Assembly (NCBI GenBank): GCA_021399395.1
Contig: JAAFKJ010000192.1
Span: 1-10,240 of the forward strand
DNA from: Candidatus Heimdallarchaeota archaeon
GTDB lineage: Archaea; Asgardarchaeota; Heimdallarchaeia; Heimdallarchaeales; Heimdallarchaeaceae
DNA: 10,240 nucleotides
Direction: 5' to 3'
How positions within the stretch are numbered: position 1 is the stretch's first letter; every line of letters starts with the position of its first letter. Below are positions 2,790-10,240 of the stretch, piece after piece. The translations under genes and the position numbers were made by a program. A model generated the notes under the pieces. That model did no database searches and was not told the DNA's origin. It saw only the letters and a list, made by a program, of their open reading frames with translations.

Positions 2790-3701
2790 ATGCAGAAAGA
2801 AGATTTATTTGAGATTCTAGATAATCATCTTTTTAGTAATTCTTATCTTGATATAAAGAAATTGAGTGAAAAGATTCAAATAAGTCAAAAAGAAATCAAA
2901 GAATTTTTTTCTCGAAAATCAGAGGAAATGGGGTTCATAAAAGACGGTAGTTCTATCTATTTTGCTCATGAGATTATAAGAGAAAATATTGAAGACATAA
3001 AAGATTCTTTTTGGCTTTGGTTCTTGCGTTGTGTACCAAGTTATAGCGATCTTGCTTGGGAAGAAGGATCTGCAATTGCTGATACATCAAAAATAAAGGT
3101 AATTCCTTCACGAACCTCCTCTAAAAGCATGATACAGGCTTTTACAGCAAGAATTCTTATTCTTGGAGAAGAAAAAACTGGTAAGCAATCATATGTTTAT
3201 GCTCTGTCAGGCGATTCTCTTAACAGACCGGCCCCAGGTGTATTTTCAGGAAAAATCTCTAGAACCTTAGATGAATTTGAGACTGATTTCGAAAGCATTA
3301 TCTTGGATATTCCTCCAGATTCTCCTTTGTGGATTTATGCGAAGGCTTCCTTTGGAGTTATCCTTACTTATGATCTCTCGGAACCTCAAACCTTTGAGAA
3401 GTTGCTGTATTGGTTAGATACTTTCTCAGATTCATATTCATATGAACTGTGTCCTCCAATTATGCTGCTCGGAACGAAAAAGGATTTACTTACCAGAGAC
3501 GAAATAGCTGTTTACATAAAACAAGCTGATTCCCTAAGAGAACAAATTGAACAAGAATATGGTACTATAGCATTGAGTGAGATGGTATCTTTAACAGATG
3601 GGGGTAATGTTTTAAACTCCTTTGAGAGTTTTGCAAAAACAATCCGTCAGTGGTATCAGATAATCAAACAAGAATATCTTGATGACAATCCAATGGCTTA
3701 A
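2790..3701 (+). CDS. Divergent Ras/Rab-like small GTPase domain fused to an N-terminal winged-helix-like region
   Basis: ARILILGEEKTGKQS (G1-like, 3165-3191), ILDIPPD (G3 position, lacks DxxG), YAKASFGVILTYDLSEPQTFEKLLYWL (RabF4/F5-like, compare YYRGA..LLVYDIT..SF..L..W), PIMLLGTKKDL (G4-like), EMVSLTDGGNVLNSF (G5-like). Confidence 0.75.
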   Translation: MQKEDLFEILDNHLFSNSYLDIKKLSEKIQISQKEIKEFFSRKSEEMGFIKDGSSIYFAHEIIRENIEDIKDSFWLWFLRCVPSYSDLAWEEGSAIADTSKIKVIPSRTSSKSMIQAFTARILILGEEKTGKQSYVYALSGDSLNRPAPGVFSGKISRTLDEFETDFESIILDIPPDSPLWIYAKASFGVILTYDLSEPQTFEKLLYWLDTFSDSYSYELCPPIMLLGTKKDLLTRDEIAVYIKQADSLREQIEQEYGTIALSEMVSLTDGGNVLNSFESFAKTIRQWYQIIKQEYLDDNPMA

Positions 3702-3783: not shown

Positions 3784-5505
3784 GTGAAAATAATGGAGAA
3801 ATTGAAAAGCTTACAACTTCGATTCCTGGATAAAGCCAAACAAAAACATGGCAAAAAACTCAAGATCCTGGTAATTGTTCTTATCGCAATTTCTTTGTTA
3901 ATAGCTTCTCTAATTGTTAAGGACATGGTTTCGAATTGGTATTGGGATAATCATGGATTAGGATTTTATTGGACAGACCCAACGTTATTTGAAACTGTGT
4001 ACACAGGTAAAGTTTGGTATATAGAGGCTTATGTAGATGCTTCTTATTATTACGAACCTTATTTACAGGCATTCAGATATGAAAACTGGAACCCTTATGC
4101 AGGCGGTCCTGGACCATTAAATGGGTATGCTTATGGTCCAATGTTCATTTTTGGAATATACTTTATCTCACTAATAATAAGTATGCTCTTTCCTCAGATG
4201 CCGATAACTGAATTAGTTCCTTTATCTGTAAAATGGACACACATAGCGTTTGATTCGTTATCAGTTGTAATGGTTTATCTAGTTGTAATATTCCTCAAAT
4301 CTTTCAAGAAAAACGAATTGAAAAGACATACCTTTGGTATTCTAGCAGCGGCAATTTTTGCTTGTATGCCTATAAATTTAATTTATGTGGACAGCCTCTA
4401 TCTTAATACTCCTCAAATGACTTTTTTCACTCTGTTGAGTCTCTTATTATTTATGAAAGAGAAGTATAGAGTAGGGGCATTCATTCTATCAGTTGCATGG
4501 CTTACTAAACAGATGTCCCTATTTTTGCTAATTCCTTGGTTTTTCATAGTATGGAAGAAGAAATCTTTGAAATCAGCTTTTATGGATTTCTTGTTCCCAT
4601 TCCTCCTTACGACAATATTAATCTCTTTACCTTGGCTTATAATGACGCCAAGAAACTATTTGAGAAGAGTTTTTGGCCCCGGTAGCCCTGTAAGAATATT
4701 CGATGTTAACACTGCTCTAACTGCTGCTAACAATGGCCGAACGGTTACTCTAGCACATAGTTTCTTATATCTAGAAAATGAAGCATTGGCGTTATTCTAT
4801 CATAAGATAAATCTGTATATGATACCCTTCGTGTTTTTCTATCTCCTTGCTGTTTTATTCGCTTATTTCAATGGAGATAAAATAGGCAATAACGAATCTT
4901 ACCTCATTATACTCTCAACATGGATTCTTGTAAGTACTCATCTTTTCATTTCTAGAGGTGTATACAAGTACTATAACGCATTTCTTACTCCTTTTGTTGT
5001 GATCAGTCTTCTAGTATTTTTTGATGACATTCTACCAAAAACTGTTCAACAAATACCAAAAACATACAAAAGGTTGCAACTATTATTAATTATTATTGAA
5101 ACGAGAATTCTAAAAAGAACAACAGAAATAGAAATAAAAATAATAGAAATAAAACCCAAGCAAGAAAAAATAATTTCAAATGTATTTCTAGCCCTGACAT
5201 TCTTAGGTTCGTGTTTTGCTTTTTATTATTTTAACTGGATTTTAATTGTAAACACAAGATTTTTACACCCGCTATATCTCTTAATTTTGTTTGTAGTAAT
5301 CAGCTTACTTATCCCTCCTTCTATTTACTTAAGCTTGTTCAAAGCTGGTTCCTACAAAATGATCTGGACCGATTTAGTTTACATCTACAATGAAACAGTT
5401 AAAGGAATAGTTTCAGCAGGTAAATCTACTCAAAGTTTTTTTGTGGGAATATATAAGAAAACCAAGAACTTTGTTCGTAAATCTGAAAATGAAGAAGACA
5501 AGTGA
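3784..5505 (+). CDS. Multi-pass membrane GT-C superfamily glycosyltransferase (GT87/PimE/PMT-like)
   Basis: About 10-12 hydrophobic segments. First external loop carries DASYYY...WNPY...YAYGPMF, resembling the GT87 D..Y...PY...Y.YPP pattern. Also AWLTKQ, SLPWL and YKYY. Start is GTG 3784 or ATG 3793. Confidence 0.7.
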   Translation: MKIMEKLKSLQLRFLDKAKQKHGKKLKILVIVLIAISLLIASLIVKDMVSNWYWDNHGLGFYWTDPTLFETVYTGKVWYIEAYVDASYYYEPYLQAFRYENWNPYAGGPGPLNGYAYGPMFIFGIYFISLIISMLFPQMPITELVPLSVKWTHIAFDSLSVVMVYLVVIFLKSFKKNELKRHTFGILAAAIFACMPINLIYVDSLYLNTPQMTFFTLLSLLLFMKEKYRVGAFILSVAWLTKQMSLFLLIPWFFIVWKKKSLKSAFMDFLFPFLLTTILISLPWLIMTPRNYLRRVFGPGSPVRIFDVNTALTAANNGRTVTLAHSFLYLENEALALFYHKINLYMIPFVFFYLLAVLFAYFNGDKIGNNESYLIILSTWILVSTHLFISRGVYKYYNAFLTPFVVISLLVFFDDILPKTVQQIPKTYKRLQLLLIIIETRILKRTTEIEIKIIEIKPKQEKIISNVFLALTFLGSCFAFYYFNWILIVNTRFLHPLYLLILFVVISLLIPPSIYLSLFKAGSYKMIWTDLVYIYNETVKGIVSAGKSTQSFFVGIYKKTKNFVRKSENEEDK

Positions 5506-5541
5506 TTGCTTTAGTACCTCTTTCGCTTTGCCCGTATACTT

Positions 5542-5553
5542 AAAAGTTAAATA
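5542..5553 (+). promoter_or_regulatory. Candidate BRE-TATA promoter of the pilin gene
   Basis: AAAAG followed by TTAAATA (5547-5553), ~45 nt upstream of ATG 5598. Confidence 0.35.
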
Positions 5554-5597
5554 TCAAGATATAATAATATAGTTTAGTAGAACGTTAGGGATTACAT

Positions 5598-6167
5598 ATG
5601 TTCAATAAATTGCGCAAATCTAGAAGAGCTGTTTCGGAAGTATTGGCAACTGTAATAATAATCTCTCTTGTTCTTGCAGCTACAGCACTTGTAAGCGCAA
5701 TACTAACAAATGTGAATATAGCTGATTTATTTGGTTATTTAGCTGTTCCTGAAACTAAGGAAGTAACCCTTACCATGGATGTTATAGTAATTAATGATAC
5801 AGACTTGGATTCCTTAACTGATACAGTAATAGTGTATCTATCTCTAGATGTAGATTCTCCAAGTATCTATGTTTATGATGTTGACCTACAACTTCCTACC
5901 GGAGACACGTTGGATGATATTACGCCATGGTCCATTTTAGCGACATCTCAATCTTGGAATACTGAATTTAACGGTTATACTATTCTGTATGGTCATATTA
6001 ATGCTTCATTTACAATTCAAATTAATGATTTTGTACAGGATGACGCAGAACTAAGTTCTGGAACTTCTTTTTCACTAATTTTCCATTATACTTATATCTC
6101 AGATTTAGGCGGACAAATCAGAACTATGTCTGATTATTATGTGAGCTCGTTATTAATCGCTCCATGA
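5598..6167 (+). CDS. Archaeal type IV pilin / archaellin-like N-terminal domain protein
   Basis: Class III signal peptide MFNKLRKSRRA|VSEVLATVIIISLVLAATALV: basic leader, [RK][GA] cleavage site, S at +2, long hydrophobic helix. It is followed by an acidic beta-rich domain with sequons NDT and NAS. Confidence 0.85.
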   Translation: MFNKLRKSRRAVSEVLATVIIISLVLAATALVSAILTNVNIADLFGYLAVPETKEVTLTMDVIVINDTDLDSLTDTVIVYLSLDVDSPSIYVYDVDLQLPTGDTLDDITPWSILATSQSWNTEFNGYTILYGHINASFTIQINDFVQDDAELSSGTSFSLIFHYTYISDLGGQIRTMSDYYVSSLLIAP

Positions 6168-6209
6168 CAAATATCTCTCAATAGAATATATTTTTCACTT
6201 GCTGTCTAC

Positions 6210-6222
6210 AAAAGAATTAAAA
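6210..6222 (+). promoter_or_regulatory. Candidate BRE-TATA promoter of the Rab-like gene
   Basis: AAAAGAA followed by TTAAAA (6217-6222), ~30 nt upstream of ATG 6253. No SD, consistent with a near-leaderless transcript. Confidence 0.35.
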
Positions 6223-6252
6223 TGATGAAGAAAAATTAGCATATTAGATAAT

Positions 6253-6984
6253 ATGTCACTCGAACCAAAAAGAGCTTACAAAATTGTTCTTATCGGCGAT
6301 CCCGAAGTGGGCAAAACTTCTATTAGAAGGAAATATATGGGAAAGTCATTTAGAGCTGACTATCTTAAAACTTTGGGGGCAGATTTTGCTGCTCAAAAAG
6401 TTAATGTGGAAGGAGAATCAGTTCTTTTAACAATCTGGGATTTAGCAGGTCAATCAATCTTTCATGGTATGAGGTCATCTTTTTATCATGGGTGTAAATG
6501 CGCACTTGTTGTTTTTGATGTCACAAACCCTCAAACGTTGGAAAATTGCTACAAATGGGCAGACGAAGCGGCAAAATATGCTAAAAGCTCATTAAAAGAA
6601 ATTTATCTAATTGGTAATAAAATCGATCTGGTGGATGATCGTTTAGTTACCCCTGTAGATATCCAATCAACAGCTGAAAGGTTTGAACAAGCTTTCAAGT
6701 TCCCAATAGAGATATATGAAACTTCAGCCTTAACTGGTGAAAACATCATTGAACTATTTGAGCATATGAGTAGAAGATTAATAATCGGTGATGAAACCAA
6801 AGAAGAACAGCAAGAAGTGCAAATTGAAAGCGAAAAGATTGAGCAAGAAGAAGAGGCTAGTAAGGAAGGGAAAGAAGAAAGTAATGTGGACATTATCAAG
6901 ATGCTTGAATCACTGGAAAAAAGAATAAACAGCATTAATGATGATTTGAGTGAAATCAGAAAACATATCAAAAAAGATGACTAA
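6253..6984 (+). CDS. Rab-like small GTPase (Ras superfamily) with acidic linker and C-terminal coiled coil
   Basis: G1 GDPEVGKT, G2/RabF1 YLKTLGADF, G3 IWDLAGQ, RabF4-like FYHGC, RabF5-like VVFDVT, G4 GNKID, G5 ETSALTG. No C-terminal Cys prenylation motif. Confidence 0.93.
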   Translation: MSLEPKRAYKIVLIGDPEVGKTSIRRKYMGKSFRADYLKTLGADFAAQKVNVEGESVLLTIWDLAGQSIFHGMRSSFYHGCKCALVVFDVTNPQTLENCYKWADEAAKYAKSSLKEIYLIGNKIDLVDDRLVTPVDIQSTAERFEQAFKFPIEIYETSALTGENIIELFEHMSRRLIIGDETKEEQQEVQIESEKIEQEEEASKEGKEESNVDIIKMLESLEKRINSINDDLSEIRKHIKKDD

Positions 6985-6996
6985 GGGCGAATGGAG

Positions 6997-7040
6997 ATTT
7001 TTGTCACCTTTTTAAACATTCTAGAAAAATATTTTTGTCA
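6997..7040 (+). terminator. T-rich candidate terminator region containing a 10-bp direct repeat
   Basis: T5 tracts at 6998-7002, 7009-7013 and 7032-7036. ATTTTTGTCA occurs at 6997-7006 and 7031-7040. Confidence 0.35.
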
Positions 7041-7060
7041 AAATTCAACTAAGGTTCCGT

Positions 7061-7105
7061 ATATATTGTATACTAGTAATATAATGCAATATATTTTTAT
7101 ATTAC
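7061..7105 (+). promoter_or_regulatory. Candidate TATA box (TTTATAT 7096-7102) with interlocking inverted repeats (possible operator)
   Basis: ATATATTG 7061-7068 pairs with CAATATAT 7087-7094. GTAATATAA 7076-7084 pairs with TTATATTAC 7097-7105. Confidence 0.4.
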
Positions 7106-7155: not shown

Positions 7156-8364
7156 ATGAATAAAAAAGGACTAATTTTAATCTTCCTTTTTGTAGTTTCT
7201 GCTGTCGGTGCTGTGACTTTTACACAAGCAGCCACCGATGATCAAGTCGAAGTTACACTTTCTTATATCCCTTCAGCTTATGTTGAAATGGGTGAAGTGT
7301 ACGTCGAATTTGACAGCAGATTCTTAGATGACAATATGGTATTTGGAGAAGACGACACCATAAACTTTGCCTTCTTTTACGATGTAGCTGTTGAAACATG
7401 GGGCGGCGCCCACACATATGGTGGGGGTATCCAACCCGAGATGTGGTATTACGAAACACCAGATCCCAACAGTACCTGTCTGTATACCGAAACAAGATTT
7501 GTCGGTGTTTTCAATGTAATGATCGACAATTATGATATCGGTATGACAAACTTTGACATATGGGCAGACAACGGAAACTATCAAGATATCGCTATACAAT
7601 TAGATATCGGATGGCACGTTATGACTATCGTAGCTGCTGAATTGATTTCCGACTGCAACCACACCACATGGGAGTGGACATATGCAAAGGATCAGAAGAG
7701 ATTCTATGTCTCTGAAGATAAAGAAGACACACCTGCATTGTCAGAAGACGCAAGTTATAATGAAATAGATGTTCTTGCAACTCCAGTGAACTCAGAAGAT
7801 TTGAATGCATATTATAATTGGACCAGCTTCCTAGACTCACCAAGGCCAATCGCAGAAGCAACCCTGAACCAATATACAATCGAAGATCTCGGAACTGAAG
7901 CAGTTCCAGTGACAACTGATTTCGCTTTGCAATATAACGCATCAGATAACGTCTTAACTCTAGCCGACGGACCAAGCGGTCTAATGTATGACAACATCTA
8001 CGAGATGGGACCATTAACATACATGTGGATCGTTAATGACCAACCTGCTATTATAGCAAACGATACTTTTGAACCAGCAACACTAGATGTTGGACTATAC
8101 AAAGGACAAAATTGGATTTACTTCGTTCTATTTGGTTTCAGAGTAGATGATTACTCTCAATTATACAGTAATCCTGCTCCACAGTTAGCTACAACTACAG
8201 TCAGATTTGACTTGTGGTTAGGTGACTTACCAGAAGAACCAACATACACAGACCCATGTCCAGAATGTATATGTCCAGAACCAACACCAGGGTTCGGCAT
8301 ATTTATAAGTGTCTCAATGCTCGGGCTAGCAGCCGTACTTATGATGGTACGCAGAAGAAAATAA
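7156..8364 (+). CDS. Secreted acidic beta-rich cell-surface protein with PGF-CTERM-type (Heimdall-CTERM-like) sorting signal
   Basis: Sec signal MNKKGLILIFLFVVSAVGAVTFTQA. D/E/Y/W-rich mature region with five N-x-S/T sequons (NST, NHT, NWT, NAS, NDT). Pro/Thr linker, then TPGF + TM helix GIFISVSMLGLAAVLMMV + RRRK. Confidence 0.85.
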   Translation: MNKKGLILIFLFVVSAVGAVTFTQAATDDQVEVTLSYIPSAYVEMGEVYVEFDSRFLDDNMVFGEDDTINFAFFYDVAVETWGGAHTYGGGIQPEMWYYETPDPNSTCLYTETRFVGVFNVMIDNYDIGMTNFDIWADNGNYQDIAIQLDIGWHVMTIVAAELISDCNHTTWEWTYAKDQKRFYVSEDKEDTPALSEDASYNEIDVLATPVNSEDLNAYYNWTSFLDSPRPIAEATLNQYTIEDLGTEAVPVTTDFALQYNASDNVLTLADGPSGLMYDNIYEMGPLTYMWIVNDQPAIIANDTFEPATLDVGLYKGQNWIYFVLFGFRVDDYSQLYSNPAPQLATTTVRFDLWLGDLPEEPTYTDPCPECICPEPTPGFGIFISVSMLGLAAVLMMVRRRK

Positions 8365-8365
8365 T

Positions 8366-8372
8366 AAGGTGA
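8366..8372 (+). promoter_or_regulatory. Archaeal Shine-Dalgarno site
   Basis: AAGGTGA, 8 nt before ATG 8381; same motif and spacing as at 7141. Confidence 0.7.
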
Positions 8373-8380
8373 GCTTAAAT

Positions 8381-10240
8381 ATGAAAAGAAATACAGCGAT
8401 TTTCGCACTTCTAATCCTTACTAGCCTGCTCGCAACAAGTGCAGCAACCACAACTGTAAATGTAGATGGTGCTACAGCAATCGCCAACATTGTCTTTAAG
8501 ACAAACGGCGGTGGTGTAAGACCAGACTATGGGTTGTACATTGCACAATATCTCAGAGCACTAGGTATCGAAGTAGAAGTCAAAGTAGAAGAATGGTCGG
8601 TATTCATAGGAACACTCCTATTAACACACGATTATGATATAGGTATAGTCGGTCTAACCGGTGGTGGAGCATCTCCCGATATGAGAGACGTCTACTCAGA
8701 AAATGGGTCACTTAACCTGTTCTTAGTCGGTCCAGATATACCATATGGTCTTGATAGTGAAGAAATGCAAGCTTCAGGTGTTACAATCACTGATCTTGAA
8801 GCAAGACAACAACACTATTATGATTGGCAACAATTGATGATGGATAAAATCGTCCCAATGTTACCATTGTACTCACCCAGAACTTACGTAGGAACATGGG
8901 CTAATACATTAGGTTACGAAGGAAGATGGGGAATAGTTGATTCCTTACCATACATGGAATATGATGGCTATCATGACGGTCAAGCGTCTTTAACCGAATT
9001 CAATTTAGCAGATGCTAACTGGAGAGAACTCAATCCATTGTTCACAGATGATACATCAAGTTCATTCATCTGGGATCTAATGTCTGAATCAGTTCTAACA
9101 TTTAGTCCAGATCTTGCACCTCTTAAAACAGGTCTAGTTATTGACTGGGATCAAATTGATGAATTCCATTACAAATTCTACATGAGAGATAATGTATATT
9201 GGAACCCATCATACAATGTTACAATGAGAACCGCAAGTTCAGGCCTATTAAGCGCAATCCCAACTTCAGAGCTAATGAAAGGATTAAATGATCCTCTTGT
9301 AGCCGACGATGGTGAATACAGCGATGGTTCTAACCAACAAGTTACAGCTAAAGATGTAGTCTTTACCTATCTAGCTTGGTCAAACCCAGTTATCAGTGAA
9401 AGTACAACTTATCATGATTGGATCTCAGGTTGTTATGTAGATCCAGTAGATCCTTTGGCTTTCCACATCCACATTGATGGTGATCCAACTACTATCCCAG
9501 TAGAGCAATACGTAGACTTTTGGGCAAGACTCCCATGGGATGTTCTACCAGAATTTTACTTGAACTCAACCGACCTCGGTGTTACTTACACAGATGGTCA
9601 TATTCCATGTGTTGGTCTATACGAAGGTATGGAAACTACACCTGAGTGGGTTGCTTTCAGTACATCAGCTTTTGGCTGTGGTAAATACATGCTTGATTAC
9701 GCCGCTGATAACTCCGTTACAGTTTTACAAGCCAATCCAGATTGGTTTGGTATTGGAGCAATCGATGGTGAAGCTCAAGACTTGGACATTACTACAATCA
9801 ACATTCGTGTTATTCCTGATACCTCTGCTGAACTAGCAGAATTCAAGGCAGGAAAACTAGATTGGACTGGTTTAACCGCATGGCCCGCAGAAAGAAAGCA
9901 GATGCAAGCAGACCCAAGATTTGAAGTGCAAACCTATGTAGTAGGATATATCACATTCATGTTCTACAACCTACGTCGTCCTTTTGTTGGCGGTGCAGAT
10001 AACTTCGAATATCTTGACGCTATAGGTAAGGAAGAATATACCAAGGCTTGTGCAGTTCGTAAAGCTATGAACTACGCAATTGACCGTGATGAAATGAACC
10101 AGGTTCTACATGATGGTGAATATCTAATTGCTCACAGTGTTCTTTACCCATCCACAGCATACTACTACTACAATGATATCATAAAATACAATTATGATCT
10201 CTATTCAGCTATGGAATGGTTAATCGCCGCTGGTTATCCA
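8381..10240 (+). CDS. ABC transporter substrate-binding protein, family 5 (OppA/DppA/NikA-like), circularly permuted; 3'-truncated (>=620 aa)
   Basis: Manual translation shows no stop from ATG 8381 to the window end. Signal peptide MKRNTAIFALLILTSLLATSAA. SBP_bac_5 motifs include LNPLFTDDTSSSFIWDLMSESVL, YKFYMRDNVYW...SDG..QVTAKDVVFTY, FGCGKYML, LQANPDWFG, IRVIPDTSAELAEFKAGKLD, FMFYNLRRPF, VRKAMNYAIDRDEM, YNYDLYSAMEWLIAAGY, IAQYLRALGIEVEVKVEEW and TDLEARQQHYYDWQQLMMDKIVPMLPLY. Confidence 0.92.
   Translation, partial: MKRNTAIFALLILTSLLATSAATTTVNVDGATAIANIVFKTNGGGVRPDYGLYIAQYLRALGIEVEVKVEEWSVFIGTLLLTHDYDIGIVGLTGGGASPDMRDVYSENGSLNLFLVGPDIPYGLDSEEMQASGVTITDLEARQQHYYDWQQLMMDKIVPMLPLYSPRTYVGTWANTLGYEGRWGIVDSLPYMEYDGYHDGQASLTEFNLADANWRELNPLFTDDTSSSFIWDLMSESVLTFSPDLAPLKTGLVIDWDQIDEFHYKFYMRDNVYWNPSYNVTMRTASSGLLSAIPTSELMKGLNDPLVADDGEYSDGSNQQVTAKDVVFTYLAWSNPVISESTTYHDWISGCYVDPVDPLAFHIHIDGDPTTIPVEQYVDFWARLPWDVLPEFYLNSTDLGVTYTDGHIPCVGLYEGMETTPEWVAFSTSAFGCGKYMLDYAADNSVTVLQANPDWFGIGAIDGEAQDLDITTINIRVIPDTSAELAEFKAGKLDWTGLTAWPAERKQMQADPRFEVQTYVVGYITFMFYNLRRPFVGGADNFEYLDAIGKEEYTKACAVRKAMNYAIDRDEMNQVLHDGEYLIAHSVLYPSTAYYYYNDIIKYNYDLYSAMEWLIAAGYP

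Follow-up and report, generated by a model that had tools for sequence, protein, structure and literature searches.

A naturally permuted cluster C solute-binding protein of Heimdallarchaeota, probably serving an Opp-type importer encoded elsewhere in the genome

The last gene in the 10,240-nucleotide stretch of Candidatus Heimdallarchaeota DNA analysed here (the window) encodes a cluster C (PF00496) binding protein that has undergone a clean circular permutation, a conclusion that leaves practically no room for doubt. Same fold, reversed order of the two blocks, neither block lost or doubled, and a single history for both are found together in this protein, which is real and conserved and most likely functional. 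The whole of the evidence is very probably explained by an intact, naturally permuted cluster C binding protein that works outside the cell and delivers to an Opp importer; its basic function would be that of an ordinary ABC binding protein.

The coding sequence of this permuted solute-binding protein (P0001, 620 aa, 8381..10240, on the forward strand like its parts and its upstream neighbour) starts at an ATG preceded at 8 nt by GGTGA (8368..8372), a stretch that sits right behind the upstream stop codon and that we take to be the Shine-Dalgarno-like site of the gene. A Sec-type signal peptide (8381..8476, aa 1 to about 32, its cleavage site estimated by eye) displays a basic start and a hydrophobic core without a lipobox Cys, and is followed by the C-block (8477..8962, aa 33–194), the canonical C-terminal third that now comes first and holds the second part of the C-lobe, the hinge strand PLY and the terminal strand. 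The junction of the old C- and N-termini (8963..8992, aa 195–204) leads into the N-block (8993..10240, aa 205–620), the canonical N-terminal two thirds, which closes with the YD...A..L..AG helix, the new C-terminal end of the fold. The N-lobe (8879..9946, approximately aa 167–522, with bounds taken from the deletion ends of single-lobe relatives that lack this stretch) is now one contiguous insert within the C-lobe, the opposite of the canonical topology in which the chain starts and ends in the N-lobe and the C-lobe forms one insert. Motifs reported in an earlier note, which read the letters alone, stand in the translation where they had been placed: IVFKTNGGG from aa 37 (aa 36 being nt 8486), DGYHDGQAS at aa 195–203 (8963–8989), EFNLADANWRELNP at aa 206–219 (8996–9037), and ...WLIAAGYP at the window end. 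The contig (C111) stops at 10240, as does the window, with the reading frame still open, and orthologue tails indicate that this assembly's copy lacks some 35–45 aa, made up of the linker, the TM anchor and a basic tail.

A protein profile search matched PF00496 at 125.9 bits (gathering cut-off 32.4) in two stretches, and these come in the reversed order that had been predicted, model positions 289–354 (at 8483–8680) lying upstream of positions 28–279 (at 9314–10240). Pairwise phmmer alignments placed aa 37–180 on AppA 362–503 and aa 216–293 on OppA3 42–120, and three pieces of H. pylori DppA were met in the order 384–517, 43–105, 301–370; the reversed motif order is beyond chance. An AlphaFold2 model of aa 33–620, built on a 96-row alignment, reached pLDDT 93 and pTM 0.87, with pLDDT 91–96 in the blocks, no weak segment at the junction, and both lobes and both hinges intact. 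VIA comparisons recovered the two-lobed fold with the extra cluster C domain (Z 20–22 over about 320 residues), and the sequential alignment superimposed model residues 173–588 (aa 205–620) on residues 1–341 of DppA (1dpp; Z 20.7, rmsd 2.9 Å, 322 aligned). For the front block the structural match was made on the equivalent block of P0160, a single-lobe relative, rather than on the window's own block, and P0160 residues 31–169 correspond to DppA 341–480 (Z 10.1, rmsd 1.6 Å, 131 residues). Because the N-block equals DppA 1–341 and the P0160 front block DppA 341–480, the cut falls at about DppA 341 with nothing lost. A colinear full-length match to a canonical protein, which had been named beforehand as speaking against permutation, did not come out of the structural alignments: the front block is covered in none of the 50 Foldseek-ranked VIA rows and none of the 46 cluster C rows (48,161-chain search). 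Neither set contains a solved cluster C chain in permuted order, although being missing from such lists proves nothing. Taken together, phmmer, the model, VIA and P0160 bear out the proposal that the old termini are joined and the chain is reopened after the A..L..AG helix, inside the C-lobe.

The initial OppA/DppA label holds at the level of the PF00496 class and was otherwise too specific, since no NCBIfam equivalog reaches its cut-off. Scores for the named OppA, DppA and NikA subfamilies stay far below these cut-offs, the best match, Opp4A, scoring 63 bits against 650, DppA 14 against 1005 and NikA 25 against 393, values that the permutation itself lowers.

Homologues numbered 261, and of the 119 listed besides the query, which are 54–87% identical and, where named, belong to Heimdallarchaeaceae or Heimdallarchaeota, 117 align in one piece over at least 90% of its length. 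The best 150 representatives comprise 71 full colinear proteins, 28 fragments across the junction, 38 other fragments, 12 single-lobe forms and one tandem, with canonical order in none. The suggested homologue survey thus recovered the permuted form as the standard form of its family rather than a one-off, with the same cut in unrelated lineages. All homologue tails but one extend 28–143 residues beyond the window-end position, and the membrane anchor expected past 10240 is present in orthologues, a TM helix and basic tail ending 93 of 95 homologues; no second C-block, the announced sign of partial duplication, follows in the full-length proteins. According to the same alignment the anchor has indeed moved to the other lobe, the C-terminal TM helix now following the C-lobe. 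At the junction, aa 190–212 span 23 residues in 95 of 96 aligned rows (the query and 95 of the 119 listed homologues), with P190 and Q201 conserved in 96/96 and H198 in 95/96, so that the short linker DGYHDGQAS, present as described, is better regarded as a conserved fixed-length turn than as a flexible spacer. Across five orthologues dN is 0.10–0.34 against a dS of 0.59–2.0 or saturated, in both blocks and in the junction, which is under purifying selection.

An assembly artefact or a partial duplication at a contig end might be suspected from a gene that runs off a 10-kb contig, and from run X3, in which two contigs overlap only at 8978–8988 (11 bases) and one low-depth contig skips 8984–9142. 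However, a contig from another study (X4, record 23) spans 8626–9306 with 0 differences, clearing the suspected region near 8960–8990 of misassembly, and the same block order occurs in single-contig genomes. Together with the one-piece homologue alignments and the TM-anchor tails, the X4 contig refutes this explanation, whose remaining probability is negligible.

Thirteen relatives have nothing but a signal peptide, the C-lobe and an anchor, a form that one deletion can yield from the permuted order. In these 'half flytraps', mostly of about 300 aa, the N-lobe has been cut out at both hinge strands and the TM anchor kept (P0160, P0178, P0180, P0190, P0202, P0203, P0218, P0229, P0230, P0247, P0267 and P0270, with further genes at L046:3558-4583 and L157:1489-2286). 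There is also a divergent permuted sister clade, about 28% identical and present roughly once per genome (G000:C171:29273-30088 and C91:3486-4640, a gene split across these two contigs; L235:6747-8606; L241:6764-8629), whose members carry the C-terminal anchor and, at the other end, a longer N-terminus, perhaps a TM helix that is not cleaved off.

Canonical cluster C proteins (E. coli DppA 1dpp and 8z1z, B. subtilis AppA 1xoc, C. jejuni NikZ 4oet, H. pylori DppA 6ofq) are alike in fold, lobes, hinge strands and extra domain, whereas the permuted chain runs from 341 to the end and then from 1 to 341, has both termini and the anchor in the C-lobe, shares only 14–22% identity, bears N-lobe insertions and is encoded by an orphan gene. 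The genome's own canonical archaeal family-5 protein (contig C20) resembles it in signal peptide, TM anchor with basic tail, and Opp-type permease family, but has the normal order, an anchor after the end of the N-lobe, its own oppABCDF operon and under about 21% identity. The halves of OpuAC are reportedly swapped relative to those of ProX. No mention of such a swap is made in the accessible part of PMC2861598. TpMglB-2 (Tp0684, 'Cluster Bc') is likewise a natural, family-wide circular permutant of a membrane-tethered ABC binding protein; in the accessible portion of its description it still binds ligand and closes, and the authors suggest tethering as the driver of permutation (PMC4990184). 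That protein has the cluster B / type I sugar-binding fold, to which permutation adds a fourth crossover (PMC4990184, same portion), whereas the Heimdall protein belongs to cluster C, keeps two hinge crossings and is anchored by a C-terminal TM helix. A literature search whose coverage largely excludes subscription journals returned no described cluster C permutant, and none is described in the available text of PMC8694067, PMC10601554 or bioRxiv 10.64898/2026.10.28.762692; within the searched publications, as far as their text was accessible, natural permutation is known in cluster B (TpMglB-2) and a cluster C case was found in none.

The cut of the window protein (cut A) recurs across Asgard archaea. 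A canonical HMM built from 31 full-order proteins gave 166 matches in sampled Asgard loci, of which 145 were classified (21 fragments being left out): 37 are canonical, 84 have cut A (two of them single-lobe), 18 are cut near HMM position 238 and six near 309, class counts that do not represent frequencies, the sample having been picked partly for truncated PF00496 matches. Cut A was met in 11 of the 13 sampled Asgard families. In a tree of 114 rows (three short rows and 28 near-copies dropped) the starred branches force at least six changes for cut A, an AU test on 26 rows chosen after that tree rejected a single cut-A clade (p 1e-106), and cut A was held together in 0% of 200 bootstrap trees (30 rows). 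Sister pairs of opposite order are up to 63% identical, as are L072 (cut A) and L079 (canonical). In PF00496 numbering, two cut points other than cut A, at about positions 143 and 210, were noticed in Asgard family-5 proteins (L165–L188 of G037, G074 and G011; L128–L135 of G061 and G101).

The proposed origin is a tandem duplication that would have been followed by trimming. Tandem proteins exist (P0157, P0188 and L129), and a search for 'longer' homologues of the window gene's clade found none among 7999 candidates, and no tandem, a negative of little weight given that a profile search did find long multi-domain relatives. As side observations, the tandem multi-domain binding proteins also include L081 and L082; L129 (G061:C170) consists of two permuted units, so that a complete canonical-order domain lies inside, and in P0188 domains from two distinct permuted clades are fused among acidic repeats. 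In-order alignments to the model, from residue 1–3 to about 555–570, were obtained for four small class II binding proteins (Z 7.9–9.4, rmsd 4.1–4.3 Å), and from these middling scores we infer that the cut may lie where the second of the fold's pseudo-symmetric repeats begins. GshT (4eq9), TupA (5my5) and an amino-acid binder (6a80) align in sequence order over the whole model, starting at residue 2–3, with 205–226 residues, but are proteins of about 240 residues with no extra domain, 7–12% identity and an rmsd above 4 Å, so that only topology is shared. Recurrence of the same cut would be explained by its falling between two pseudo-symmetric repeats, where small class II proteins start.

It has also been considered that cut A arose once, early in Asgard archaea, the interleaved canonical proteins being reversions via tandem intermediates. 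Within one clade of 35 rows (support 100), canonical proteins of families f2–f4 are indeed interspersed with cut-A and cut-C rows, and L129 offers a full canonical-order domain within a tandem permuted protein. Other cut-A rows (e.g., L127, L066) nevertheless sit among mostly canonical rows, and the trees, unrooted and without a bacterial outgroup, do not fix the direction of change; a single origin is somewhat unlikely. Far less probable is a chimera of two blocks taken from two different binding-protein genes and fused in reverse order. This possibility was raised for TpMglB-2 by its authors (PMC4990184, accessible part), and the nearest sampled canonical proteins being only 19–21% identical, the parent of the window protein cannot be named. 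Still, the blocks meet precisely at DppA 341 without any loss or doubling, trees of the two blocks (114 rows) have 54 strong splits for the N-block and 28 for the C-block with 0 conflicts between them, and other cut-A proteins have canonical sisters 47–63% identical over both blocks.

With a circular permutation of one and the same protein, as preferred here, this family amounts to an experiment on the chain topology of a large three-domain protein, run repeatedly by nature. Canonical and permuted sisters share up to 63% identity, the chain is cut at three different points, and both tandem intermediates and single-lobe products occur; because all of these exist, both the permutation-by-duplication model and the anchoring hypothesis put forward for TpMglB-2 are directly testable. 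Natural tolerated cut sites are also shown for flytrap-based biosensors.

In the proposed mechanism, the signal peptide would export the protein, the C-terminal TM helix, now behind the C-lobe, would hold it at the membrane, and the protein would close on its ligand like a Venus-flytrap protein and hand it to an OppBCDF importer whose own gene cluster includes none for a binding protein, the likeliest partner being encoded on C183 (oppBC) and C191 (oppDF). Neither the window nor any of the 16 syntenic family-f1 loci listed has a permease gene near the binding-protein gene. The genome has one canonical binding protein (that of C20) and, in two main clades, over ten orphan genes or gene fragments of the permuted kind; its C28 and C183/C191 permease clusters come without a binding-protein gene. 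In the single-contig relatives G073 and G026, where 11 and seven family-5 proteins are intact and full-length, every one of these is cut-A and canonical order is absent; each genome has an oppBCDF operon without a binding-protein gene, G073 having in addition a separate oppBC pair of this kind. In four other Asgard genomes (G048, G037, G101, G061) complete oppBCDF sets adjoin cut-A genes, and since these proteins head ordinary oppABCDF operons there, docking on the permease is argued to be basically kept. On this genomic evidence, the permuted protein in all likelihood feeds an Opp-type ABC importer encoded elsewhere in the genome.

That this importer is the C183/C191 system in particular is suggested, with a fair degree of probability, by the phyletic pattern and the permease trees. 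Among 27 family genomes, C183-type OppB is found in 26, C28-type OppB in 23, clade B in 25 and the window gene's clade in 24 (E below 1e-200). G085 and G144 keep the window gene's clade together with C183-type OppB and have neither clade B nor C28-type OppB; the pairing is based on these two genomes, which are incomplete (89% and 91%) and may stand for a single loss. On the permease side the pattern fails in G079 and G126, which keep clade B without C28-type OppB, so that absences are noisy. In family f2, oppBC is flanked by related cut-A genes in three genomes; f2 OppC is sister to the C183 type at 96/97, the OppB pairing stands at 81/84 with a long-branch warning, and the f1+f2 binding-protein clade, with f3 outside, has 88/85 in the careful tree. 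Complex prediction for the binding protein with C183-type OppB alone (OppC left out) gave 0.47, 0.00 and 0.00 in three runs, values that count neither for nor against the pairing. Most likely the C183/C191 system is shared with at least six paralogues. A likely binding subunit and permease can thereby be named for what is probably a major nutrient-uptake route of Heimdall archaea.

Some features of the permeases deserve mention in their own right. Most family genomes have a second copy of C183-type oppB, 75–83% identical and without oppC, usually adjoining a gene for a protein of 550–570 aa (G000:C134:14831-15562; L230:7157-8239; L232:7483-8490; L233:6892-7899; L239:6570-7577 and 8969-9976). 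C183-type OppB (L228:933-1937, G000:C183) carries an 11-residue insert with a conserved C-x4-C in the first extracellular loop, at the position of DppB's scoop motif, in all 11 C183-type rows and in neither other OppB type. At G000:C28:35407-38019 an OppB of 870 aa has a large N-terminal repeat-rich extracellular region; in several relatives this OppB measures about 575–600 aa.

The ligand would probably be an organic solute such as a peptide or an amino-acid derivative, with about an even chance that it is peptide-like. In the phmmer alignment L92-T-G-G95 of the permuted protein (G95 held in 82 of 96 rows) stands where H. pylori DppA has W-M-A-D, the Asp of which is presumably D436. R47 (83/96 rows) aligns to an Arg of AppA, whose Arg373 we take to be a peptide-binding residue, and a literature search for peptide-binding residues of AppA gave nothing relevant. 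DppA grips the peptide ends with R383 and D436, according to the accessible part of PMC12136057. Because the W-x-x-D stretch reads L-T-G-G and is Gly-rich in the permuted protein, its ligand would probably not be gripped in the DppA way.

Directly upstream, in 16 syntenic loci listed, lies the gene for a secreted, C-terminally anchored surface protein of no known family (402 aa, 7156..8364), a conserved partner that probably forms one operon with the binding-protein gene. Its product matches Heimdall-CTERM weakly (20 bits against a cut-off of 24), and an Atlas search queried with the orthologue P0121 gave only Ig-like leads under 0.8. The binding-protein gene uses C-ending codons for F/Y/N/H in 57 of 104 cases, which places it ninth among 2169 ORFs and sets it apart from the genome mean at p 2e-7, by a noisy measure in which transposase-like ORFs rank high too; the fraction is highest in eight of ten orthologous loci and second in two, paralogues reach 0.22–0.36, and the 402-aa gene has 35/72 (rank 37/2169). 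This codon usage points to a gene that is probably highly expressed. Both genes are covered by contigs that two studies obtained from RNA libraries of relatives, whereas 5500–7089 is not; contigs give no measure of expression level.

These neighbourhood data bear on a different reading, in which the permutation is real and the abundant copy is mainly a surface-coat, adhesion or sensing protein acting with the 402-aa partner rather than a transporter subunit. High abundance is normal for transport binding proteins. The reading can nonetheless appeal to an orphan gene coupled to a surface protein in the loci listed, to the strong codon bias common to both genes, to the altered pocket motif, to single-lobe relatives showing that the clade can leave transport, and to P. 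syntrophicum, whose top-ranked protein is a family-5 binding protein and for which S-layer proteins were not detected, in the available part of PMC11284389. But both lobes and both hinges are intact, conserved permease clusters without a binding protein need a partner, and the related f2 proteins flank oppBC, which together render a coat role improbable. Delivery to an importer remains the preferred function. A wider and distinctly tentative picture, doubtful as a whole, would have cluster C carry a recurrent re-cutting site at the boundary of two ancestral repeats, the permuted form having replaced the canonical one outright in some Heimdall-family genomes; the N-lobe as an excisable insert and the new C-terminus would have seeded half flytraps and C-terminal domain fusions, and the most strongly expressed copy, the window gene, with its upstream partner would form a major cell-surface part of these close relatives of eukaryotes.

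A plasmid search gave one weak partial match, and a sigma-70 promoter scan, a model that does not suit archaea, found four sites where 5.6 were expected. The window further contains a DEAD/MrfA-type helicase (1-2153), two Ras/Rab-like small GTPase genes (2790-3701 and 6253-6984), of which one is extended at its N-terminus and matches Ras in degenerate form, a multi-TM protein that weakly matches a surface-glycopolymer family (3784-5505), and a protein resembling archaellin/pilin N-termini (5598-6167; 19.3 bits against a cut-off of 20). Many relatives have an extra gene of about 440 aa, absent from this genome, between 6167 and 6253. The block of helicase, Ras-like, membrane-protein, pilin-like and Rab-like genes is kept in at least 12 same-genus loci, a count that excludes two paralogue loci, and in all four of the other genera.
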